Virus record (IMG/VR): IMGVR_UViG_3300031555_001562
Origin: a virus
Taxonomy: Duplodnaviria; Caudoviricetes
DNA length: 64,000 nt
Direction: 5' to 3' (one strand)
Part shown: positions 6,629 through 50,975 of the stretch, one piece after another
Numbering within the stretch: position 1 is the stretch's first letter
Layout: each line of letters starts with the position of its first letter
The notes under the pieces: model-generated
Told to the model about the DNA's origin: nothing
Database searches by the model: none
Seen by the model: the letters and a program-made list of their open reading frames with translations, nothing else
Position numbers and translations under genes: made by a program

Positions 6629-6780
6629 ATGGAGATCAAGGTTATCAACAATGTTCCCAATCTCAATGTCACCGTAAACCAGGCAGAAGACGGCAGCTTT
6701 GCTATCCTGCTGGCTGAAGACAAGAGAAAGGCGCTCGGTAGCGCCGAACTGGGATCCATCAAGAAGATCGGCAATCGTGA
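6629..6780 (+). pseudogene. DGR target 1, displaced 5' portion
   Basis: MEIKVINNVPNLNV...LGSIKKIGNR joins EFIVLEH in frame after re-inversion. Confidence 0.85.
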
Positions 6781-7021: not shown

Positions 7022-7249
7022 TTATATGACTCCTTTTCCTTTTAGCCATTCCGCAGCGTCAAGCAGAATTGCAACTACGAACCATAGTCCAAGGCAGATT
7101 CCAAGGTCTGCCCATCCACTATGATCCCATCCAAGGATTGCGACAACACCATCAAGTAAATATCCTATAGAGACTGCGAATAAGACGCCAATTCCTGCGC
7201 ACAACAGAAGGTTAATTGCAGTTCTCAAAAACTTGATTACATGTTTCAT
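7022..7249 (-). CDS. Small membrane protein
   Basis: Two hydrophobic segments; in operon. Confidence 0.65.
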   Translation of the reverse strand: MKHVIKFLRTAINLLLCAGIGVLFAVSIGYLLDGVVAILGWDHSGWADLGICLGLWFVVAILLDAAEWLKGKGVI

Positions 7250-8088
7250 GGCTCACCAACAAAAACCAGATCCTCGACATACTTTCTCCCGTCTCCCTTG
7301 AAGATAGGAATCTTTTTATCGATAATCCATTTAGGACGTTTATCTTCGTCTCCCTGAACCTTTATGCAACAGCTGCCACGCTTTTGATGTACAGGGAAAT
7401 CGTTCCAGTTGATACCCTTTTCCAGCATAAGCATGTCTTGCATCTGGCTCTGGGACTTGTTTTGTAACATTCCATGTGAGAAATGCGCCTGAGCTACCAT
7501 TTCCACGGAATTTCTGGTTGCATCATTCTGCCGCCACAAAACACAGTTGCAGACTTCTTCCTTTGGAATGTTGAACACACGTGCATCGAACAGAGCGCCC
7601 TTCTCAGCCGCCTTCTTGTATGCCTCGTAGTATTTGCCATTGTCCTCTTCTGAGAATGTAATATGATATCCAATCTCAGTAAGATCAATGTCAGTATTGA
7701 ACTCATAGAAAGCATTCAGATTTGCAACAAAGAATCTGTTGAACGCAAATGTAGCCATCGACGCAGCAATACTGCACATCTTCTGGATGTTGTTATCAAA
7801 CCATGCGCAGCTGTTGAGTTTCTTGTAATCCACCAGAACAAGTGTGATTTCGTCGGACTGTGTATAGCCCAAAACGCAACCTTGAATATTTTCGCATAGA
7901 TACTTCGTGGTATCCTGCATGGTGGAGATCAGCACTTCATCAAAAGGTCTTTTGAAACCTCTTGTGAAAGTGTGGAATGCCTTACCATCCAGCCGGATGA
8001 TTACTGGCATTCTGGGTACGAGATATGTACGGGTGATATACTCGTACTTTTTCATGCGATCACCCAGCGCATCTCTTTTCTTTGCCAT
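7246..8088 (-). CDS. tRNA(His) guanylyltransferase Thg1-like protein
   Basis: RLDGKAFHTFT, YTQSDEI, FDAR and WRQNDATRNS motifs. Confidence 0.93.
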   Translation of the reverse strand: MAKKRDALGDRMKKYEYITRTYLVPRMPVIIRLDGKAFHTFTRGFKRPFDEVLISTMQDTTKYLCENIQGCVLGYTQSDEITLVLVDYKKLNSCAWFDNNIQKMCSIAASMATFAFNRFFVANLNAFYEFNTDIDLTEIGYHITFSEEDNGKYYEAYKKAAEKGALFDARVFNIPKEEVCNCVLWRQNDATRNSVEMVAQAHFSHGMLQNKSQSQMQDMLMLEKGINWNDFPVHQKRGSCCIKVQGDEDKRPKWIIDKKIPIFKGDGRKYVEDLVFVGEP

Positions 8089-8097
8089 ATATGCTCC

Positions 8098-8385
8098 TTA
8101 CGTTGTAAAGAATTCATCGACTATCGTCAGGTTCGCATTGACATCTAGAACCATATCCTTGACATAATCATTTTTGCATCTGCCCCTGTCCATCCTGAAA
8201 CAAAGAGGATTTGGTTCTGTTTCATCAACATAGTATTCTCTTCCGCAGTGATTGCATGTTTCTTTGGAATACCTATCGTCGGGAAGCTCTTTGAACTTAT
8301 AGAAATGTTGCCATGTCAAATTATATCTATTTTCATGTCCGCAGTTTGGACATCTCCAATAGCTAAAAACATCAACCCAACTCAT
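8098..8385 (-). CDS. Small Zn-ribbon protein
   Basis: CPNCG and CNHCG. Confidence 0.6.
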   Translation of the reverse strand: MSWVDVFSYWRCPNCGHENRYNLTWQHFYKFKELPDDRYSKETCNHCGREYYVDETEPNPLCFRMDRGRCKNDYVKDMVLDVNANLTIVDEFFTT

Positions 8386-9149
8386 GTTTCAGCGGAATAA
8401 GGGAAAGATGGCATAAGCTCAAGCTTGAACTTGTTCTTCTCATGCATGCGGTCAATCTTTTCTTTTACAACTTCATCCTCGCATACGCCAGTACGAATGT
8501 ATTTATTCAGAACGGCATATGTAAAGCCAAAATTGTCTTCGTCAGTCTTACCACACAGACCATCAGCAGGAACCTTGTAGGCCAGATCATAAGGAAGACC
8601 ACATTCCACACCGATTGCCATAACCTCATCTGTGGTCAAATTTGACAGAGGGCTAAAATCACCGACACTATCACCATAACGAGTGGAATAGCCGATCCAA
8701 TCTTCTGACAGATTGCAAGTGTTGGCAACTCGTCCATTGCATGACTGAGATACAGCATAGAGCGTAACCATACGCAGACGTGCAGGAAGATTGATTCTGG
8801 TCTGCTCAGAAATATCGAACTTCATGTTCTGCGGATTCTTGCGATTATCGCAGATCCCACGATAAATACCATGTTCTGCATCATGGATATTGATCCACAC
8901 TCGCTTGATTCCAAGATGATCCACTACCGCAAGAGAATCATCGATATCTGCTTGTTCACCGTTGGGCATCAGAACTCCGATAACACGATCTTTACCCAGT
9001 GCTTCCACACACAGAGCAGCCACAACAGAGCTGTCCTTGCCACCGGAGATGCCGACGATAGCATTACATCCGTTACCGTTTTTCTCGAACCACTCACGGA
9101 TCCACTCAACGCACGCTTCCTTTACTTTCTTCACATCGAACTTGTACAT
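8382..9149 (-). CDS. nadE: NH3-dependent NAD+ synthetase
   Basis: GISGGKDS, ARLRM, GYSTRYGD and PADGL motifs; no glutaminase domain. Confidence 0.93.
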   Translation of the reverse strand: MYKFDVKKVKEACVEWIREWFEKNGNGCNAIVGISGGKDSSVVAALCVEALGKDRVIGVLMPNGEQADIDDSLAVVDHLGIKRVWINIHDAEHGIYRGICDNRKNPQNMKFDISEQTRINLPARLRMVTLYAVSQSCNGRVANTCNLSEDWIGYSTRYGDSVGDFSPLSNLTTDEVMAIGVECGLPYDLAYKVPADGLCGKTDEDNFGFTYAVLNKYIRTGVCEDEVVKEKIDRMHEKNKFKLELMPSFPYSAET

Positions 9150-9556
9150 AATTCAGATCTCACTCTCATTAGAATTCTGCCGAGTCTATTTTCACCAACT
9201 CCATGCACAGCGCCCCAAATACGGTCTCCCCAGGTATTACCCTCGACAAGAATCTCATCGCCTGTTGCCAGAAGCTTTGCTCGAAGATCAGGGTTTTGCT
9301 CGAACTTCGCCTTGCAAATTTCGTACATAACCTGGTCTTTGATCTGCTCCCAGTCTTCACGCAGCTGAACTTGTCTACCGAGTTTCTTTGCGTCAGATGG
9401 ATTCAGCTGGTGGAATTTCATGCGAATGAACTTATTGGTGGTCTTCTGTGCCTGAAATGCTGCTTCGTTATTTCTATAGGTGATGCCACCGTAAGTGACA
9501 TCACTCTCATAGAAATTACTCAGAAAGTAGAATTCGCCTTTGAACTCTCCAATCAT
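9131..9556 (-). CDS. NADAR family protein
   Basis: FLSNFY, EAAFQAQK, KFEQN, LVEGN, WG and NRLG motifs. Confidence 0.92.
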   Translation of the reverse strand: MIGEFKGEFYFLSNFYESDVTYGGITYRNNEAAFQAQKTTNKFIRMKFHQLNPSDAKKLGRQVQLREDWEQIKDQVMYEICKAKFEQNPDLRAKLLATGDEILVEGNTWGDRIWGAVHGVGENRLGRILMRVRSELCTSSM

Positions 9557-11082
9557 CAGAATTTGCCTCCATTCAGGTTTGCACGGACTTCCTGCAAGGT
9601 GTATTCCTTTACCATCTTGCCGTCCTTGAAAACAGTCTTCAGCTGGTTATCAGGATCATTGACTGCCTGTTCCCAGGTATAACCGTCCTCAAATACGTAT
9701 TCGCCATTGTTATCCAGATGGACAACACAGCATCCCTTCTGGGACTTCTTGAAGCCACCATCCTTGGGATTTTTGAAAATCGGATGGGGATCGCCGTTGA
9801 TCTCGCAGTAGGTAGCCTTGATGCAGAAGCTGAAGGTATCTCTGGTAAAAGGCTTCAACAGCTTGACCTTTCCAGTAACTTTGGTTCCGTCTTCCAAGGT
9901 AACAGTAACGTCATCAACTTCCTCAATGCACTGCATGGAGAAAGAACCAACACCCAGAGCAACATTGGAACATGCAAAGCCATTCTCCATCAGAATCTGA
10001 TAGATCTCTTCGCAACGCTGAACGGTGATGCTATCACCATAGATTGCCTTAACATGGGGATCCAACACCTTGTAGCCCTTGGAATTGATAGTGCCGCCAA
10101 ACTGATCCCAAAGCTTGAAAACAGTCTTAGTAACAACTTCAACACAATCACCGGAGTCGCCACGCATGAGCATACAACCGTTATGGTTCATGATTTCTTC
10201 CTTGGTCTGGGGCAGAACATTGTCAATAATGTTCCAATAGTCATAGGAATCCAGAACGGCAGAGAAACTTGTGTTGGGATAGATTTCGGTCAACAGACGC
10301 TTCAGAAGCGTAACCTCATCGCCGTCAACCGCATAGTTGGAACACATGACGGAATGTTCGGTACTGGGGCTACCAAATGCAACCGGCTCTTTGGTGCAGT
10401 CACAGTTATACATTTCCTCCAGATAGGGAATTGTTGGTACGGTTGCGGTATTCAGGAAAGACAGACACCATGCAGCGCCAGCCTTAGTTGCAGAATCCAG
10501 GCATTCCTCGCCACGGAAGTCAAATGCGCCCAAAGCTCTTGCACGAGGCACATTATCATCACAGGTCAGATCATAATACTTGTTTACGATCTGGCGGTAA
10601 GTATGGCCTACGGTTGCAACGATCATGGGATGCCAAATTTCAGCAGACAGTAGACTCTCAAGAGCCTGGGGAAGCCACGCAAAGTCCGGATGGGTATTGG
10701 TAATACCGAACATGGGAACATGCATGGGAACCATAGTGCCTTCAGGAAGTGCAACGATTTCGATGGGCAGATATCCCAGCTTGTGCAGCTTAGAAATCTT
10801 TTCAATTCCATACACATTCTTGCCCAGAGCGGCATCCATGACTCTGGTATAGCTTTCGATAACTTCATCGTGGGACTTCTCGAAGAACTCGGTGTTGAAG
10901 TAGTCGATCAGATAGGTTTTACAAAATGCCTGGAGGATGAACATGACCATCTTATCCCAGCGGTTAACTCTGCCCATTCTGGGAGTTGCATAGGACATGG
11001 ATTTAGTCATATTCTTTGGGAGCATTTCTGCATGAACGCCCTTGTAAAAGTCGATCAGCAGATTGGGATTAGTTCGCATCAT
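9556..11082 (-). CDS. NAMPT-fold nicotinamide/nicotinate phosphoribosyl (or ADP-ribosyl) transferase
   Basis: DFYK..H, FDFRG, STEHSVM, VLDSYD, RGDSGD, IYGDSIT, TRDT and KKSQKG motifs. Confidence 0.9.
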   Translation of the reverse strand: MMRTNPNLLIDFYKGVHAEMLPKNMTKSMSYATPRMGRVNRWDKMVMFILQAFCKTYLIDYFNTEFFEKSHDEVIESYTRVMDAALGKNVYGIEKISKLHKLGYLPIEIVALPEGTMVPMHVPMFGITNTHPDFAWLPQALESLLSAEIWHPMIVATVGHTYRQIVNKYYDLTCDDNVPRARALGAFDFRGEECLDSATKAGAAWCLSFLNTATVPTIPYLEEMYNCDCTKEPVAFGSPSTEHSVMCSNYAVDGDEVTLLKRLLTEIYPNTSFSAVLDSYDYWNIIDNVLPQTKEEIMNHNGCMLMRGDSGDCVEVVTKTVFKLWDQFGGTINSKGYKVLDPHVKAIYGDSITVQRCEEIYQILMENGFACSNVALGVGSFSMQCIEEVDDVTVTLEDGTKVTGKVKLLKPFTRDTFSFCIKATYCEINGDPHPIFKNPKDGGFKKSQKGCCVVHLDNNGEYVFEDGYTWEQAVNDPDNQLKTVFKDGKMVKEYTLQEVRANLNGGKF

Positions 11083-11917
11083 AGTTCATTACCTCGATCT
11101 TTTCGTGTTCTTTGGTGAAAATGCTGTTTGTGGTAAAAACACGGTCAACGAGTCCACTGGTCAGCAGCTCGCCGTCCAGAATTGTGTTCTCGCAGTGAGA
11201 AACATACAGATAGATTTCTTTTGCGCCCAGTTCCTTCAGCTTCTTTGCGCTATGGTAGAACGTACCGCCACGGCTGCAAATGTCATCGACGATCAGAATG
11301 CGCTTTCCGGCAATCATATCAGTCATACCGGACACATCCAGACCATTGATCTTTCCAGTAGACCAGTCACGCTTTTTGATGCCGAAAGCATACGGAATAT
11401 TAAACATGCTGGAATATCTCTTCATTGCGCCCTCATCGGGGTAGAACATCATGAGATCATTTTCGCCGGATGCAGACTTCAGCTTGTCGATTACGTTTTC
11501 AACCAACTTCTTCGGAGTGCGGATCTTGATTCTGTCAATGAGTGCTTCACTCACAGAAGAATGGGGATCCAGAACTTCAACGGAAGTAAAATCCAGCCAG
11601 TTAATGACTTCCGCAAAGCTCTTCAGAGTGAACACATCCTCTTCACTCTTAACTCTGTCCTGCCGTGCATTAGGAATGTACGGCATCTTCAGGCAGATAT
11701 TTGTGATTCCATTTCTTCTCAGATGTTTCGTGACATGGATCAGCGCCACCAGCTCTGCGTCATTCTCGTACAGCCATGTGATAGTAGCACGAGAAATATT
11801 AGTGGGGAAAGCCAGAGGCCAGAAACCATATGCCATTTCCGGACGCATCTTAATCAGCATAGTACCATCGGGGAACTTGCCAATATTTACTTCACGATCA
11901 TTTCCGAAAAGCAACAT
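11069..11917 (-). CDS. Ribose-phosphate pyrophosphokinase-like protein (Prs/Adps-like)
   Basis: FPDG, MPYIPNARQDR, DPHS, PDEGA and IVDDICSRGGTF motifs. Confidence 0.9.
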   Translation of the reverse strand: MLLFGNDREVNIGKFPDGTMLIKMRPEMAYGFWPLAFPTNISRATITWLYENDAELVALIHVTKHLRRNGITNICLKMPYIPNARQDRVKSEEDVFTLKSFAEVINWLDFTSVEVLDPHSSVSEALIDRIKIRTPKKLVENVIDKLKSASGENDLMMFYPDEGAMKRYSSMFNIPYAFGIKKRDWSTGKINGLDVSGMTDMIAGKRILIVDDICSRGGTFYHSAKKLKELGAKEIYLYVSHCENTILDGELLTSGLVDRVFTTNSIFTKEHEKIEVMNYDAN

Positions 11918-11921
11918 TGCA

Positions 11922-12449
11922 TTAACCTCCGATGATGTCGATCTGGCACATGTTCATGGTATGCAGAGCTGCCTGATGGGTCTGTGGAGTAACACCAGCG
12001 CAGCAGGATGCATCCACGGCAATGTCGGTCTCAGGGTAGTTTGCCTTCAGAAGCATTGCATTGGATACAACGCAGATATCGGTGCAAAGACCGACCAGCT
12101 CGATGTACTCATAGCCGAGGCCACGAATGATCTCAGGAAGTGCAGTGCTGCCGAAAGTCAGCTTGTTCAGAGAAGCAACATGGTTGGGATGTTTCACCAG
12201 GGCGGCAAACACGTCACCATTGATCTTATGACCGTCAGTATTCTCAATGCAGTGAGAAACAGGCAGATTCTTGCCTTCTCTGGTTTCCATATAGTTGTTG
12301 AAGTGGGTATCCTGAGTAGTGATGATGTCACCATCCCAGTTGTTAATCTTTGCGATAACATTGGGAACGATTGCAACTGCCTCAGCAGTACCCAGGGAGC
12401 CGTCGATGAAGTCGTTCTGCATATCGACTACGACCAAAAGTTTCTTCAT
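11922..12449 (-). CDS. pncA: Nicotinamidase (isochorismatase family)
   Basis: VVDMQNDF, QDTH, HC, K and GLCTDICV motifs. Confidence 0.88.
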   Translation of the reverse strand: MKKLLVVVDMQNDFIDGSLGTAEAVAIVPNVIAKINNWDGDIITTQDTHFNNYMETREGKNLPVSHCIENTDGHKINGDVFAALVKHPNHVASLNKLTFGSTALPEIIRGLGYEYIELVGLCTDICVVSNAMLLKANYPETDIAVDASCCAGVTPQTHQAALHTMNMCQIDIIGG

Positions 12450-13793: not shown

Positions 13794-14777
13794 TCAAATA
13801 AACTGAACCAAGTTCCGTTTTAGGTATGTCATATTTTCGATGACCAGACCGTAGTCATTCATGACCGCAGCCAGATCGCTGACATCCTTGGAAACTCTGA
13901 CGGAAGTGATAATCTCCTTTGTACGCTCTTCGCCGTAACGTTTTACGAGTGTATCATAGAAGCCCAGCAAGTACAACTTCCGGTATCCGATATCAACTCC
14001 GAACTCTTTAGACACTTTGGTAAACAAAGTTGTATTGATCTTTCTGCCAAGATAGGTGAGATCCTTGTTCTGGAACTCATCAGATTCAGCCGGTCTGACA
14101 ACAAACTTGAAGTATCCGTTATGCCAAGTCATCATGTAGAAGTTGCCACGCATACCTTCCATCTCCTGCATATCGTGGACAGAAGTCAGCAACTCAAAGC
14201 ATCGATCAGTCAGCTTAATGGTTCTTCCGGGAAGACGCACTTCCTTTTTGCGGAAATTGATCTGATCTTCTTTCAAGTTAGCAATCTCTTGCGCTTCAGC
14301 AAAGCCATCATAGAACAGTCTGATAATCAGCTCATAGTAATCGGCATGCTCACGATCATACAAACCGTGAAGCTTTTCAATGATTTCCTCAAGCTGCTTA
14401 TAAGTAAACCGATCCTTGTTGTCTGCCAGCAATGCATCTGCCTGGATACCTTTGAACTTCGCACTATGGAATGGGTTCTTAATGACTTCAAAGTTGTCAA
14501 TATAGAACTGGAAGATAAGTCTGAAGTTGGAAACATACTTCTTGAATGTGCCACTACCAACCTTGAGTCCTTCACGTACTGCGGACTTCTTGTTGTTGAA
14601 CGTGCAAATCATTGCAAACAATTCCTCTTCGTTCATTTCGACGAGCTGCTTGCCAATCTTGATTTCATATGCATACACTTCGGGGCGATCAACCTGGGGT
14701 CTCGTTTTGCGAACAGTTTCAGGATCCTTGCCCTCAAAAAACTTATCGAATAATTCCTGTGTTGAGATAACAGCCAT
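13794..14777 (-). CDS. Degenerate tyrosine-recombinase-fold protein, MrpR-like repressor candidate
   Basis: Integrase-like IRLFYDG...IANLKEDQI segment without recognisable catalytic R/HxxR/Y residues; own promoter TTGACA-N17-TAAAAT; SPbeta-like context. Confidence 0.6.
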   Translation of the reverse strand: MAVISTQELFDKFFEGKDPETVRKTRPQVDRPEVYAYEIKIGKQLVEMNEEELFAMICTFNNKKSAVREGLKVGSGTFKKYVSNFRLIFQFYIDNFEVIKNPFHSAKFKGIQADALLADNKDRFTYKQLEEIIEKLHGLYDREHADYYELIIRLFYDGFAEAQEIANLKEDQINFRKKEVRLPGRTIKLTDRCFELLTSVHDMQEMEGMRGNFYMMTWHNGYFKFVVRPAESDEFQNKDLTYLGRKINTTLFTKVSKEFGVDIGYRKLYLLGFYDTLVKRYGEERTKEIITSVRVSKDVSDLAAVMNDYGLVIENMTYLKRNLVQFI

Positions 14778-14844
14778 AACAATCCCTCCGTTCATCTCAT
14801 TTTACCAACGTTTTACGGTTTTGTCAAGAACATTATTGCGTATA

Positions 14845-15536: not shown

Positions 15537-16487
15537 TTACTTCTTTAATTGATCGACCATTGCCATCAGCTGCGTAATTGCATCAACATGAGCCATCACG
15601 TCCACATTGTCCGCATTGGTTCTGCCAGCTTCATATGCAGCCTTGATGATATCTCTGAGATCATTGGCCTCAAGACTCAGGATAAAGCTATTGGACACAT
15701 CCTGATATTCTCTGTCACCAATGATATAGTCTTCGAAGAAGTCACCCATATCATCATAGTATTTATCGACCTTCTGCTTGGTTAAACCGATGTAGTGCTT
15801 GGTTGTTTTCACATCGGAATGGTTGAAGATAGTTTGCAGAATCTCCATGCTGTCATAATCGCCAGGGTGGAGCATTCTGTTCATCATGCCAAAAGTCTTT
15901 CTGGGGCTATGAGTTCCGACATTATATTCGATACCCAGATCAGCGGCAGCTTTCTTGACATTCTTGTAGTAACAACTCTCAGACATCACTCTGCCCTTGT
16001 AGTTACCGGAAAGCTGCATACAAATAGGAACGGAGTAGTTTTCCTTCGCAGGATCACATCCTGTTTCCTTGAGATACAGCTGGATCGCAGATCTGCATGC
16101 AGAATTAATCTTAGGATTTGCCAGCTTATCAGTCTTCTCTTCTGCGAATTCCAGAAGATTGACTCTGAGCTGCCCGGTGACGGGATTGAAGAAGTTCTCC
16201 CAAGTCAAACTCAGGGTATCTCCAACTCGTCTTGCCATGTTGCAACTCAGAACAAAGATCATGTAGCACAACCACTTCTCATTGTCACGGAAATAAGCAG
16301 TGATCTTCTTCATGTCTTCAATCTCAAGGTGGTAGACTTCAGACTTCTTGCCTTTCTGCTTGTTCTGACAGATCTTCTTAGGAGTACCATCCTTTTTCAG
16401 TTTCGGTTTGCTCTCAACGACTTGCAGCTTAATTGCCGGATCGGGATTACCAGCGCAATTGGCCTGAACCAGAGATAACACCGCCAT
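15537..16487 (-). CDS. Tyrosine recombinase with intact catalytic residues
   Basis: RVGD, EKT, HSPRKTF and NHS...HYIG; start moved to MAVLS because a TTGACA-N17-TATAAT promoter lies inside the longer ORF. Confidence 0.88.
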   Translation of the reverse strand: MAVLSLVQANCAGNPDPAIKLQVVESKPKLKKDGTPKKICQNKQKGKKSEVYHLEIEDMKKITAYFRDNEKWLCYMIFVLSCNMARRVGDTLSLTWENFFNPVTGQLRVNLLEFAEEKTDKLANPKINSACRSAIQLYLKETGCDPAKENYSVPICMQLSGNYKGRVMSESCYYKNVKKAAADLGIEYNVGTHSPRKTFGMMNRMLHPGDYDSMEILQTIFNHSDVKTTKHYIGLTKQKVDKYYDDMGDFFEDYIIGDREYQDVSNSFILSLEANDLRDIIKAAYEAGRTNADNVDVMAHVDAITQLMAMVDQLKK

Positions 16488-16562
16488 ACATTTCCCTCCA
16501 ATCTTTTGTGGTAAGTTGGTTACTACTTGGATTATACCATATCGTCCATTGTTTGTCAACAA

Positions 16563-35000: not shown

Positions 35001-37842
35001 GCTGCACGGCCTTCGGGAGGCATCATATCTTCCAGCGCCTCAGCCCAGGAATTATACCAACCGGAACCGTTATTCAGATCTTCCCACGCATCCAGCAGTT
35101 CACCGTGATACAGCACATTCCAAACACGGTTGAAAAGTTCGCTGCAATGTTCGTTATAATGGTCATTGCCATAAACGTTGATGTTTTCCGGAAAGAATTC
35201 GTCACCGTGAAACAATGGGGATTCCTGATATTCGGGAGAAACTTGTCTAGCGTAAATTTTCATCATATTTTCCTCATTAGCTAAATACAATCATGAACCA
35301 CATTAATGTGTAGATCGTAACCGCAGTTCCAGCAAGCTGCGCCATAAATTCCATGAATTCCTTTTTCCGGTTGCGCATGACCATGTGAATTTTCCTCCAA
35401 TTATTTTGACAATAATGCTTTAATTTGTTCCATCTGTTCCGATGTCACAATACCGCTTAAATCATCCAGGCTAACCAGATCGGCGGATTCATACAGTTCG
35501 ATTTGATAACCATTTTCTTTCGTCGGTTTTTCTTTGATGGTTCCACGTGTTTTCTGAAGACTGAAATAGTTGTAAGCCCGTTTCCATTCGTTGCTATTTT
35601 TGATCCTTGCGACGGTTGCCTCCGCCTCCATCAGTTCGACACGAACACTATTGATATAATCAACGTGTTTCTGTTCAGGCTTAAAAATTCCGTATCTCAT
35701 ATTTTCCTCCGCTTTAATACCGCTTGCGAATTTCCCCGTTTACCGTCTCATAATCAATGCTGCACAATTCACAAATACAGTGTTCGTCATCCGAAAATAC
35801 AATTTCAGGGTACATATTCGGATAGCAAATTCCTCCGCAGTCCGTGCATGTTCTAGATTTTCCGGCTGTACAGCTGAAATCATCGGGAACAAAGGAAATT
35901 CCTTCGAATTTTTCCAGGATAACCGCATCCGGGATATCACCAGGGAAAAGCACGGGGAGTCCGTCGTTTCCATTGCATCCGGTAAACTCATCACTCCAAA
36001 AGTAGTTGCTTTTCAGCTCATCCAGCTGATCCCGGTTAAGTTCGTGAACGCTCAACATATTTCATTCCCTCCAATTCATTTAGATAAAACCTGATCCCGT
36101 GTATATTTGAATGTGATATTAGGCGCTGATACATAATAAATTCCGTCGTGCGTTGCGTCCGCTGCAAATTCCTTCATTTTCCGGAAACTTGAAAATGTTT
36201 TGTGCTTGCATCCGCCTTCTGTGAATTCTTTTTCACTGCCGATATACGTATATTGTCTTTTCATGATCGTTACCCCGTCATTCAATTTCAATCCGGTAAA
36301 TTTCGGTAAAGCAATCAAAATTAATGATCCATACGGTTCCATCGTCACGAATAACAGTTGCTTTATTGAAGATCTTTTCTTTTGTGCCTAAAACCCGGCA
36401 TACATGCCCAGCAACTTGTTTTTCTTCAGGATAGCAATATGGTTCATTTCCGCCACGCTTTACAGATCCGCAATAGATAAAGCTATTCCATCCCATAGCT
36501 GCGCCGTGTCTATGATAGAAGGGAATTTCACTTAATTTCATTTTCTTAATAGGTAATTCAAGATATTTCATAGTCAGCGCCTCCACATTATTGCAAGTCA
36601 AACAATTTCAAAATTCTATCGCCCATACCGGGATCATATTTATAAAGGCTATTCCATGCCTCCATTGCATCCGCCCATTCATCCGGAAATTCACTTTTTG
36701 CGGAATACCAGGACGCAAGAACCATAGCGGAGGCAGTCATTGCAGTTTCCAGTGTTTCAAGTGTGCCGTTTTTATCGGTACAATTCCGGATGTATGCGGA
36801 AAAATCATCGCCGTATTCTTCTGGATGATCCGCCTTCAGTTTATTAAAGGCGGTTTTCAGCTCATCCTCCGTGATAATTCGTATGCATTCCGTATCAAGG
36901 TAAACTTTCATTGTATGCCTCCCGTGTCCGTCTCAAGCCCTTGCAAGTCTACAAATCATGTTAGAGGCCTGATAGAGTGCGCGCGCCTGAGTATCCAGCC
37001 ATTCCTCCCGGCTATTAGGCCGTCTTTCACCGTTGCGTGTTTTCTTCAGTTCGGAAGGGCTGCAAAGACGTTCCGCAATATCGGAATCATAAATCAAGGA
37101 ACATCCGCTCCAACTGTATTGATCCCAGTCACTAGCGCCGTTTAATAGCTGCTTTCTAAGCAATTTGGGCGCCTCCAGATCTTCAGCTTCGAAATAGCCG
37201 TTTTCAATTGCCTCCTCCAGCTCATCAACCAATTCCAGGGCATAGGCCTTAACGCCACGGCTCCAGGCGCTACGGGCATTCTCAGCGTTAACCGCTTTTC
37301 TCAGATCATTAATATTAGTCATTTTAGTAACCTCCTTAAAAATTGAATCTAGCGCCGAACATGAAATAAACCTTGCTTTTAGGGATCTCAATTTTCACGG
37401 CTGCGCTATGGTTAATACCGTACTTTGTCATTTCACGTTCTGTATAAAGTTCATTTGATACCAGGATGGAACCATCAGAACGGCGCTTATTATCGAATTC
37501 GGGCTTGATTTTATAGTAGATCATTTTTATACCTCCATCATCAACTTTGTTGCGATCCCTTTACCGGTCTAATATTAGGCGGTTAGATCGCTCATATTAT
37601 TTGTACCAGAAATTCACGGTATGACCGCTGAAGAAATTAACCTCCAGTCTATCGCCAAGATCACAAATATAATCGGGATCATCATAAATGTTTTTATAAA
37701 TGGGATATCCGGCACGTTCCGTTTTTTCGTCGTGGAGGTAAATACCATCCATAAATACCCACTGTTTTTGTACGGCTGCGAAGGCCTCCCGTTTAGAATT
37801 GAAATGATAATGTTTATTCATGATTTTTACCTCCGTTGTCAA
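32029..37842 (-). CDS. Cluster of small hypothetical (probably early) ORFs
   Basis: e.g. 32029-32499, 32515-32802, 33779-34282 (HTH-like N-terminus), 34556-35290, 35401-35700, 35714-36058, 36588-36911, 36933-37322, 37597-37820; many have GGAGG/GGAAAAT just before ATG. Confidence 0.6.
32863..32938 (-). pseudogene. tRNA-like element with distorted anticodon arm, no CCA
   Basis: Acceptor GAAGGATG/CATTCTTC, D-arm TAGTTTAGTGGTAGAAT, T-arm ATAGG-TTCGAAT-CCTAT. Confidence 0.6.
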
Positions 37843-45744: not shown

Positions 45745-45831
45745 GGGCGAGTAGAGTGTAATTGGTATCACCCCGGACTGTAAATCCGGTGCTTTTAGCC
45801 ACTGTAGGTTCAAGTCCTACCTCGCTCACCA
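45745..45831 (+). tRNA. tRNA-Tyr(GTA)
   Basis: Cloverleaf; ccgga-ctGTAaa-tccgg; CCA. Confidence 0.92.
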
Positions 45832-45835
45832 ATAT

Positions 45836-45911
45836 GGGTGGGTGGCGTACATGGTTGGCGCACCGGACTGAAAATCCGAGGACGTTGGTTCGATTCCAAC
45901 CCCTCCCACCA
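45836..45911 (+). tRNA. tRNA-Phe(GAA)
   Basis: cgga-ctGAAaa-tccg; TTCGA loop; CCA. Confidence 0.85.
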
Positions 45912-45915
45912 ATAC

Positions 45916-45990
45916 GGCTCGTTGGTATAACGGTTATTATACCGGACTGTCTCTCCGGTGACATGGGTTCGACTCCCATACGGGTCGCCA
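45916..45990 (+). tRNA. tRNA-Asp(GTC)
   Basis: ccgga-ctGTCtc-tccgg; CCA. Confidence 0.92.
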
Positions 45991-45993
45991 CAT

Positions 45994-46068
45994 GCAAGTG
46001 TACCCAAGTGGTTAGGGGCAGCACTGATAATGCTGTAGACGTGAGTTCAAATCTCTCCGCTTGCACCA
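45994..46068 (+). tRNA. tRNA-Ile(GAT)
   Basis: cagca-ctGATaa-tgctg; CCA. Confidence 0.85.
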
Positions 46069-46167
46069 TACAGAGTTGCATAACTCTTACTTTTTTGGTT
46101 CTTCGGTAAACCTGAAACCGATCTTGGAGACAAGGAGGAGTCTGCATAGATTCCTCATATCTGATAT

Positions 46168-46243
46168 GGCTCCTTAGCTCAGTCGGTAGAGCAACGGCCT
46201 GTTAAGCCGTGGGGCGAAGGTTCGAGTCCTTCAGGAGCCGCCA
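46168..46243 (+). tRNA. tRNA-Asn(GTT)
   Basis: acggc-ctGTTaa-gccgt; CCA. Confidence 0.95.
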
Positions 46244-46256
46244 AATAATTCTCTAT

Positions 46257-46334
46257 GGGGCAGTAGACGAATTGGATAGAGTCACCAGCCTTTCACGCTG
46301 GAATTTGTGGGTTCGATCCCCATCTGCCTCACCA
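46257..46334 (+). tRNA. tRNA-Glu(TTC)
   Basis: ccagc-ctTTCac-gctgg; CCA. Confidence 0.9.
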
Positions 46335-46341
46335 AATATAT

Positions 46342-46417
46342 GCCGATATAGCTCAATTGGCAGAGCAACTGATTTGTAATCAGTAGGTTGGGGGTTCAAG
46401 TCCGTCTATCGGCTCCA
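46342..46417 (+). tRNA. tRNA-Thr(TGT)
   Basis: actga-ttTGTaa-tcagt; CCA. Confidence 0.95.
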
Positions 46418-46423
46418 ACTGAT

Positions 46424-46499
46424 GCGGACATAGCTCAATTGGTAGAGCATCTGATTGCCATTCAGAAGGTTGCGAGTTCAAGCCTCGTTGTTCGCTCCA
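46424..46499 (+). tRNA. tRNA-Gly(GCC)
   Basis: tctga-ttGCCat-tcaga; CCA. Confidence 0.93.
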
Positions 46500-50900: not shown

Positions 50901-50975
50901 TGCGGAGTGGAGCAGCGGTAGCTCACCGGCCCCATAAGCCGTTGGTCGCCAGTTCGAATCTGGCCTCCGCAACCA
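50901..50975 (+). tRNA. tRNA-Met(CAT), initiator-like but atypical
   Basis: fMet-like body (GTGGAGCAG...GGTAGCTC); loop ccCATaa; CCA. Confidence 0.85.

Follow-up and report, generated by a model that had tools for sequence, protein, structure and literature searches.

A five-gene operon in a virus of the Caudoviricetes probably encodes a nicotinate-type variant of the phage NAD+ reconstitution pathway NARP1, in which NAD+ would be rebuilt via nicotinate and nicotinic acid adenine dinucleotide (NaAD). This operon is part of a stretch of 64,000 nucleotides (hereafter the window), which is the reverse strand of positions 35,911–99,910 of the 163,674-bp IMG/VR virus record IMGVR_UViG_3300031555_001562 (CheckV completeness 100%). 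It is formed by minus-strand genes for a PncA-like nicotinamidase, an Adps-like enzyme of the Prs fold (P0002), a NAMPT-fold transferase of the Namat clade (P0001), a NADAR-domain protein and an NH3-dependent NadE, in this order (Table 1). Gaps between neighbouring genes, where there is no overlap, do not exceed 4 bp: the overlap of the Prs-like and NAMPT-fold genes is 14 bp, and the NADAR gene overlaps both its neighbours. Families were assigned by Pfam, PHROG and NCBIfam matches that were strong or above the curated cut-offs, and they bear out the contiguous pncA, prs-like, NAMPT-fold, NADAR and nadE genes that a preliminary description of the window had placed at these positions.

The proposed pathway would be triggered by a host defence NADase that cleaves NAD+ with release of ADP-ribose (ADPR) plus nicotinamide. 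PncA would hydrolyse nicotinamide to nicotinate and NH3, and the Adps-like enzyme would convert ADPR and ATP to ADPR pyrophosphate (ADPR-PP) and AMP. The remodelled Namat (Asp to Ala, Ala to Ser and Gly to Asn in its base pocket) would join nicotinate with ADPR-PP to give NaAD and pyrophosphate, and NadE would finally produce NAD+ from NaAD, ATP and NH3. An adenylyltransferase would not be needed because such a pathway forms no mononucleotide intermediate. It would also explain the nicotinamidase as an obligate partner, though PncA would starve a classical Namat. We infer every substrate and product, as well as the counter-defence role, from sequence comparisons.

P0001 matches the crystal structures of the Namat of phage SPbetaL1 with 372 bits vs ~155 bits for human NAMPT. 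Its AlphaFold2 model (pLDDT 93.7) has the SPbetaL1 Namat 9w5x as the best Foldseek match (TM 0.89/0.93). In the tree, the Namat-type enzymes are split from the KVP40-like Nampts with a support of 100 and P0001 is found on the Namat side, as expected for a deamidated NARP1 (all trees of this work come from quick searches, with SH-aLRT values as their sole support). The contact residues known from the Namat structures (PMC12774641) were mapped on 55 representatives, namely 22 Ala/Ser-type and 30 Asp/Glu-type Namats and 3 Nampts. The clade of P0001 keeps the catalytic His, Phe189, Arg192, Arg306, Asp308, Gly360/Asp361, Gly390, Thr398/Arg399/Asp400 and Asp13/Tyr15. In P0001 itself the catalytic, ribose and phosphate contacts are all kept, as are two of the three residues of the adenine clamp.

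The base pocket of P0001 is altered. Its NTAT motif (residues 211–214, window positions 10441–10452) aligns with GTDT of the SPbetaL1 Namat, and Ala213 takes the position of Asp215, as had been read by eye in the preliminary description. Asp215 hydrogen-bonds nicotinamide in the crystal structures of the SPbetaL1 enzyme, Ala242 is listed among its nicotinamide-pocket residues and the D215A exchange lowers the nicotinamide-dependent NAD+ synthesis of Namat 8-fold (PMC12774641); the equivalent Asp219 is reported to define the substrate specificity of NAMPT (PMC7096376). The Asp215 position is occupied by Ala (16/22) or Ser (6/22) in the window's clade and by Asp or Glu in 30/30 other Namats and 3/3 Nampts. 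The Ala242 position is Ser in 22/22 Ala/Ser-type representatives and Ala in 30/30 Asp/Glu-type Namats and 3/3 Nampts. Gly213 is replaced by Asn, Lys or Arg in 21 of the 22 Ala/Ser-type enzymes (by Asn in P0001), which also have Gly, Ser or Ala for His187, Gly for Ser239 and Leu or Ser for Val304. All the changed pocket positions are invariant or nearly so among the 30 Asp/Glu-type Namats and the 3 Nampts. They correspond to H191, G217, D219, S241 and A244 of human NAMPT, which line the nicotinamide site (human numbering was transferred via the published anchors Phe193, Arg196, Asp219, His247 and Arg311). Judged from these alignments, the change on the amide side of the pocket is a coordinated remodelling and not a chance loss. 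The PncB-type NAPRT of Bacillus phage G has Ser at the position aligned with Asp215. Khan et al. are said to have found in 2006 that the D219S mutant of NAMPT accepts nicotinic acid.

The clamp motif of Namat, GSX-phi-X-phi-X-phi-TRD, has aromatic residues at its positions 3 and 7 and is complemented by Arg, Lys or Tyr in the SCL loop (PMC12774641). P0001 has GSF where the Nampts have GGG. It carries Phe at position 3 and keeps the SCL Arg as well as Thr, Arg and Asp; position 7 is non-aromatic, and 27 residues are inserted before TRD. The aromatic residue at 392 is kept throughout the clade of P0001, the Nampts having Gly there, and position 40 is Arg or Lys in 16 of the 22 Ala/Ser-type representatives (Arg in P0001). 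The insertion is modelled by AlphaFold2 as a confident β-hairpin with strands 385–395 and 401–411. Its length varies across the clade from 9 to 27 residues, relatives having the shorter forms of 9–15, and the hairpin of P0001 is 17 residues longer than in most of the ~80% identical relatives (508 aa vs ~491 aa). The Phass-1 subclade is devoid of the insertion; its clamp, GAYTYQYVTRD, is the complete canonical one, and it has Ala, PncA and NadE as well.

P0002 is 39% identical to the SPbetaL1 Adps (157 bits), any solved PRPP (phosphoribosyl pyrophosphate) synthetase giving at most 62 bits, and it falls below the NCBIfam cut-off for ribose-phosphate diphosphokinase (TIGR01251; 103.5 vs 113 bits). 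In the tree rooted on E. coli Prs it is nested with the SPbetaL1 Adps in the starred clade (99), in line with the preliminary description; the Adps enzymes of ICP1 and of Bas63-like phages branch more basally, and so P0002 is bracketed by validated Adps enzymes. It carries the Adps-type hairpin motif K-x-R-[ND]-x-x-T-G and the DDIC..GGTF PP loop. The C-terminus is short, as described for Adps (PMC13586617), and is devoid of the C-terminal regulatory helices of canonical Prs. By these comparisons P0002 is an enzyme of the Adps clade and not a canonical PRPP synthetase. The validated SPbetaL1 Adps was assayed with ADPR and with ribose-5-phosphate. Phe92 of the ICP1 Adps was considered as a marker of ADPR binding and dropped, since it is not conserved even among the validated Adps enzymes.

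Viral contigs were searched with P0001, the SPbetaL1 Namat and the Phass-1 enzyme as seeds, and 145 loci were scanned by tblastn. In 107/107 Ala/Ser-type viral loci PncA, Adps and NadE are present wherever the flank is uncut, vs 0/38 Asp/Glu-type viral loci with PncA or NadE; Adps is present in 36 of these 38 and in every untruncated locus of the Ala/Ser module. The association is not merely frozen synteny, because the gene order differs between the Ala/Ser subclades, PncA following NadE in some of them. The same module is found in 28 loci of bacterial assemblies, mostly metagenome-assembled genomes (MAGs) of Lachnospiraceae. Those with a readable residue are all of the Ala/Ser type (27/27), and they have PncA and Adps wherever the flank allows; NadE is outside the flank in two or three of the 28. 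A phage collection of 50,697 records contains a NAMPT-fold gene in 2,039 records, a NadE homologue in 46 and a PncA homologue in 11. PncA and NadE occur together there in a faecal contig (Ala), in the gut phage Phass-1 (Ala) and in Bacillus phage G, one unannotated Staphylococcus 'phage' assembly having been set aside. The Ala/Ser-type enzymes make up a single clade (SH-aLRT 93) with divergence down to 35% identity, for which one change of state suffices. This left no basis for an independent-contrast test relating the loss of Asp to the gain of PncA/NadE. Two loci, Bacteroides phage DAC15 (L148) and L107, have a Namat with Glu at the amide-binding position (FNGSETIP) and the gene order Namat-NADAR-Adps; both are without PncA and NadE.

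As to an adenylyltransferase (ADENYLYLTRANSFERASE), its absence from the window, claimed in the preliminary description for NadD, NadM and NadR, extends to the complete genome: no PF01467 domain (the NadD/NadM/NadR fold) was found in the 163,674 bp, and the same search was positive in 14/14 control genomes and detected the NadD of Bacillus phage G. The domain is also absent in 27 of 30 related virus genomes of the Ala/Ser type, as well as in Phass-1.

The closest solved relatives of the PncA-like protein are nicotinamidases/pyrazinamidases (e.g. 1ILW and 3PL1). Its Asp9 and Cys126 align with the catalytic residues of the Pyrococcus horikoshii PncA, and its Asp47, His49 and His66 with the metal ligands, Lys86 being off by one residue in the HMMER alignment. 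It is a divergent member, because its score is far below the NCBIfam PncA equivalog cut-off. NadE consists of a single ATP-pyrophosphatase domain without a glutaminase domain; its closest solved relatives (2E18, 3FIU) include the NadE of P. horikoshii and the Francisella tularensis enzyme. The NADAR protein has YbiA (2B3W) and 8BAU as solved relatives. NADAR is present in 65 of 153 loci, which comprise Ala/Ser-type modules and 5 Asp/Glu-type NARP1 representatives including the crAss-like phage DAC15, and from this distribution it is an optional accessory of the module. Characterised NADARs, in the part of the literature covered here, free guanine or cytidine bases of their ADP-ribose, and those of phages neutralise DarTG1 (PMC9503650). 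It may be that NADAR feeds ADP-ribose to Adps by freeing it from N-glycosidic conjugates, or that it counters DNA ADP-ribosylation separately.

Several observations weigh against a pathway via nicotinate and ADPR-PP. The NaAD-forming reaction of these two compounds is so far undescribed. Closeness to Namat is by itself no proof of ADPR-PP use, because Namat accepts PRPP too in vitro (PMC12774641) and P0001 has as its second closest solved relative Haemophilus ducreyi NadV, of which complexes with NMN (nicotinamide mononucleotide) and nicotinamide are deposited. The preference for ADPR-PP could moreover have changed, because Tyr396, the second adenine-stacking residue, is replaced in the window's subclade and the 27-residue hairpin is inserted in the clamp. 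The sequence of NadE does not distinguish NaAD from nicotinic acid mononucleotide (NaMN) as its substrate, the F. tularensis enzyme being among the closest solved relatives. Three of the 30 related genomes do contain a gene of the nucleotidyltransferase fold, one of them directly behind NadE (Table 1); the latter might encode a minimal adenylyltransferase joined to the module. Finally, the preliminary description had raised the question whether the Asp-to-Ala change co-varies with pncA and nadE. The co-variation is strict in the counts given above; repeated co-evolution did not stand, because the Ala/Ser group has a single origin and the co-occurrence represents one ancient event. As a separate observation, H. 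ducreyi NadV (PDB 9ke8/9keo) gives 297 bits with P0001, vs ~155 for human NAMPT, and has Gln at the clamp position 392.

The main rival explanation is a Preiss-Handler salvage completed by the host, to which we assign a small though real probability. PncA would supply nicotinate, PRPP would come from the Prs-like enzyme or from the Prs of the host, the NAMPT-fold enzyme would form NaMN, the host NadD would convert it to NaAD, and the phage NadE would produce NAD+. This route is equally compatible with the changed pocket and with PncA and NadE being present, and it also fits the use of PRPP by Namat in vitro, the loss of Tyr396 and the NMNAT-like gene of a few relatives; NadD is presumably present in the host. 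To our knowledge this enzyme is essential in bacteria. What disfavours the route is the membership of the Prs-like protein in the Adps clade, with an Adps-clade gene retained in every untruncated locus though the hosts already make PRPP. The Nampt-type GGG is absent as well, and the Namat aromatic residue 392 and Arg40 are retained; in the Phass-1 subclade the fully canonical Namat clamp is even joined with Ala, PncA and NadE. Bacillus phage G, a phage with a real Preiss-Handler set, has its own NadD and a PncB-type enzyme.

Far less probable is a classical NARP1 working on nicotinamide, in which the exchange of Asp for Ala would be tolerated and PncA and NadE would be an unrelated or parallel booster of the host nicotinate salvage. 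The D215A variant of the SPbetaL1 Namat does retain ~1/8 of the activity, and the catalytic residues of P0001 are all intact. A phage nicotinamidase would, however, deplete the transferase's own substrate, PncA and NadE never accompany Asp-type Namats, and several pocket positions are changed jointly and fixed throughout a clade with members as little as 35% identical. Use of another pyridine or base, or a NAD analogue or signal-like product on which NADAR and NadE would act, is the least probable explanation: more pocket positions are remodelled than an amide-to-acid switch seems to need and a large hairpin stands at the pocket entrance, but the step is bracketed exactly by PncA, which yields nicotinate, and NadE, which consumes NaAD, and NADAR is optional.

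The deamidated NARP1 of the preliminary description thus remains the favoured explanation, with all computational tests (the clades, the pocket, the co-occurrence, the lack of an adenylyltransferase and the contrast with phage G) coming out as predicted. On balance we also lean, somewhat more cautiously, towards regarding the Namat-like enzyme as a nicotinate ADP-ribose transferase which together with PncA, Adps and NadE constitutes a fourth NAD+ reconstitution pathway, one that does without an adenylyltransferase and is distributed widely among the large phages, and present in some chromosomes, of Lachnospiraceae and their relatives in the gut. It may have evolved because these hosts quickly convert nicotinamide to nicotinate, leaving classical NARP1 without its base.

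NARP1, consisting of Adps and Namat, is known from the phages SPbetaL1, Bas63 and ICP1 (bioRxiv 10.1101/2024.02.11.579819; structures in PMC12774641 and PMC13586617). The window operon shares with it the adjacent genes of the Adps and Namat clades, the conserved catalytic core, aromatic 392 and Arg40, as well as the presumed input, ADP-ribose freed by NADase defences. It differs in the replacement of Asp215 by Ala, Ala242 by Ser and Gly213 by Asn, in the lost Tyr396 and the inserted hairpin, in the obligate PncA and NadE, and in the predicted product, which would be NaAD and not NAD+. Two extended forms have been described: NARP1-AP contains the Macro-domain phosphatase Adpp (bioRxiv 10.64898/2026.01.28.702374), the other form of NARP1 the RyDEP glycosidase (bioRxiv 10.64898/2026.05.28.727677). 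There, too, accessory enzymes in the operon widen the usable inputs, and NADAR may be a similar feeder on the ADP-ribose side. The accessories of NARP1-AP and NARP1-RyDEP, however, all serve the ADP-ribose side and Namat stays nicotinamide-specific, whereas in the window operon the pyridine side would be rewired. PncA, NadE and NADAR are not mentioned in the NARP1-AP and RyDEP papers.

Bacillus phage G (NC_023719) encodes a complete Preiss-Handler set of isochorismatase gp275, PncB-type NAPRT gp277, NadD gp281 and NadE gp283. This set (L084, 200–207 kb) has a Nudix gene upstream and is without a Prs-like gene. A Preiss-Handler pathway resembles the proposed one in the nicotinamidase as the first enzyme, the NaAD intermediate and NadE as the last enzyme. 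The window operon differs from it by lacking a PncB-type NAPRT and NadD and by having a Prs/Adps-like gene and a NAMPT/Namat-type transferase; P0001 is 23% identical to the NAPRT of phage G. Homologues of the phage G Nudix protein (≤51% identical) flank the module in many loci of Lachnospiraceae MAGs.

NARP2 is composed of Nampt and Nmnat and is found in Vibrio phage KVP40; NARP3 is a PnuC-NadR route (PMC13464706). Like the window operon, both are phage-encoded means of NAD+ restoration against depletion defences. Both proceed via NMN and need an adenylyltransferase, of which the window genome has none, and the KVP40-like Nampts of NARP2 form a separate clade with GGG at the clamp. No description of a nicotinate-type variant was found in the literature searched, whose coverage lay outside subscription journals. 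PncA, NadE, nicotinamidase and NADAR are unmentioned in the NARP1 papers searched, and a survey of 2022 on the NAD+/ADP-ribose systems of viruses (PMC9503650) likewise does not name nicotinamidase, NadE, PncA or NAMPT.

Table 1. Features of the NAD operon, its transferase, related genomes and the surrounding region. Positions refer to the window unless a locus is named.
Feature	Position	Strand	Basis or remark
PncA-like nicotinamidase, 175 aa	11922..12449	-	Pfam Isochorismatase, 73.7 bits
Adps-like Prs-fold enzyme P0002, 282 aa	11069..11917	-	phrog_619, E 5e-71
Namat-clade NAMPT-fold transferase P0001, 508 aa	9556..11082	-	phrog_448, E 2e-156
NADAR-domain protein, 141 aa	9131..9556	-	Pfam NADAR, 108 bits (cut-off 35.1)
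NH3-dependent NadE, 255 aa	8382..9149	-	Pfam NAD_synthase, 157.6 bits; TIGR00552, 156 bits (cut-off 63.65)
Codon of Ala213 (SPbetaL1 Namat Asp215, human NAMPT Asp219)	10444..10446	-	alignment
Codon of Ser240 (Namat pocket residue Ala242)	10363..10365	-	alignment
27-residue insertion (385–411), flanked by GSFSMQ and FTRD in the helix region of the adenine 'selectivity clamp'	9850..9930	-	alignments
Candidate promoter of the transcription unit holding the operon	14799..14827	-	consensus match only: TTGACA, 17-nt spacer, TAAAAT, upstream TG, 11/12
Candidate intrinsic terminator downstream of the unit	6730..6745	-	consensus match only: 6-bp stem, 5 G-C pairs, T-rich tail
Related genome, exception 1: NMNAT-like gene, 186 aa			far from the module
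Related genome, exception 2: weak PF01467 match			inside a 415-aa protein
Related genome, exception 3: HxGH nucleotidyltransferase, 137 aa	L156:1372-1785	-	TagD/RfaE-domain-II-like, under family cut-offs; 214-kb genome holding L010; directly downstream of NadE (Ala-type)
Zinc-ribbon ORF, 95 aa	8098-8385	-	between NadE and Thg1
Thg1-like tRNA-His guanylyltransferase	7246-8088	-	directly behind the operon
Reverse transcriptase, 351 aa	4222-5277	-	phrog_1423, E 4e-104; 3 kb downstream of the operon, same strand block
Integrase-like ORFs	13794-14795 and 15537-16562	-	phrog_1 (weak) and phrog_216 (E 2e-25); upstream of the operon
Lon-like ATP-dependent protease, 582 aa	23283-25031	-	phrog_4871, E 8e-231
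Eight tRNA genes (Tyr, Phe, Asp, Ile, Asn, Glu, Thr, Gly)	45745-46499	+
Separate tRNA-Met	50901-50975	+

The promoter-like and terminator-like sites fit one long transcription unit. Their frequency in the region is not above that of shuffled sequence, and because promoter-like sites are no commoner here than in the shuffles the candidate promoter is weak evidence. Contigs from RNA libraries that belong to a relative of 95–97% identity span NadE, the NADAR-Namat and Namat-Adps junctions and PncA. They give no more than a hint of operon expression, since transcription is not provable from such contigs, and bins without coverage carry no information. The stretch itself is present in animal faecal or gut metagenomes of 15 studies, and thousands of ~80% identical proteins are found in gut metagenomes; megablast of the operon against the phage records gave no match. 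A protein homologue search returned relatives of 77–81% identity only and was of no use for sampling diversity. Lachnospiraceae and related Bacillota from the guts of animals are the probable hosts. Several of the related genomes are proviruses by their IMG/VR class.

The minus-strand block with the operon also contains the Thg1-like gene, the reverse transcriptase and the two integrase-like genes; the terminase, the portal and the tRNA cluster belong to a plus-strand block. At ~38000 gene orientation, GC skew and AT skew all flip, with minus-strand genes before this point and plus-strand genes after it (a divergent arrangement). Four ORFs next to the operon (333, 216, 207 and 95 aa) are conserved with the module only in the closest relatives and were not counted as its parts. 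The last of these, the zinc-ribbon ORF, has no homologue in the loci retrieved, and in a contig of the 95–97% identical relative it is swapped for 15 other letters (joint 8100 to 8395). Thg1 homologues adjoin the NAD module in 9 loci of three subclades (L004, L134, L142–L146, L074 and L183), which suggests a recurrent link of the module with tRNA repair. The window is without a suppressor tRNA, unlike Phass-1, a code-15 relative.

If the proposed pathway is true, it would correct the annotation of an abundant gut module, whose genes are now labelled nicotinate/nicotinamide phosphoribosyltransferase and ribose-phosphate pyrophosphokinase. For the base specificity of NAMPT-fold enzymes, Asp215, Ala242, Gly213 and His187 together provide a testable rule. 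Counter-defence pathways would then be rewirable not on the ADP-ribose side alone but on the pyridine side too, and the formation of NaAD from ADPR-PP and nicotinate would be a new enzyme reaction and a new branch of the arms race over NAD+ between phages and bacteria.

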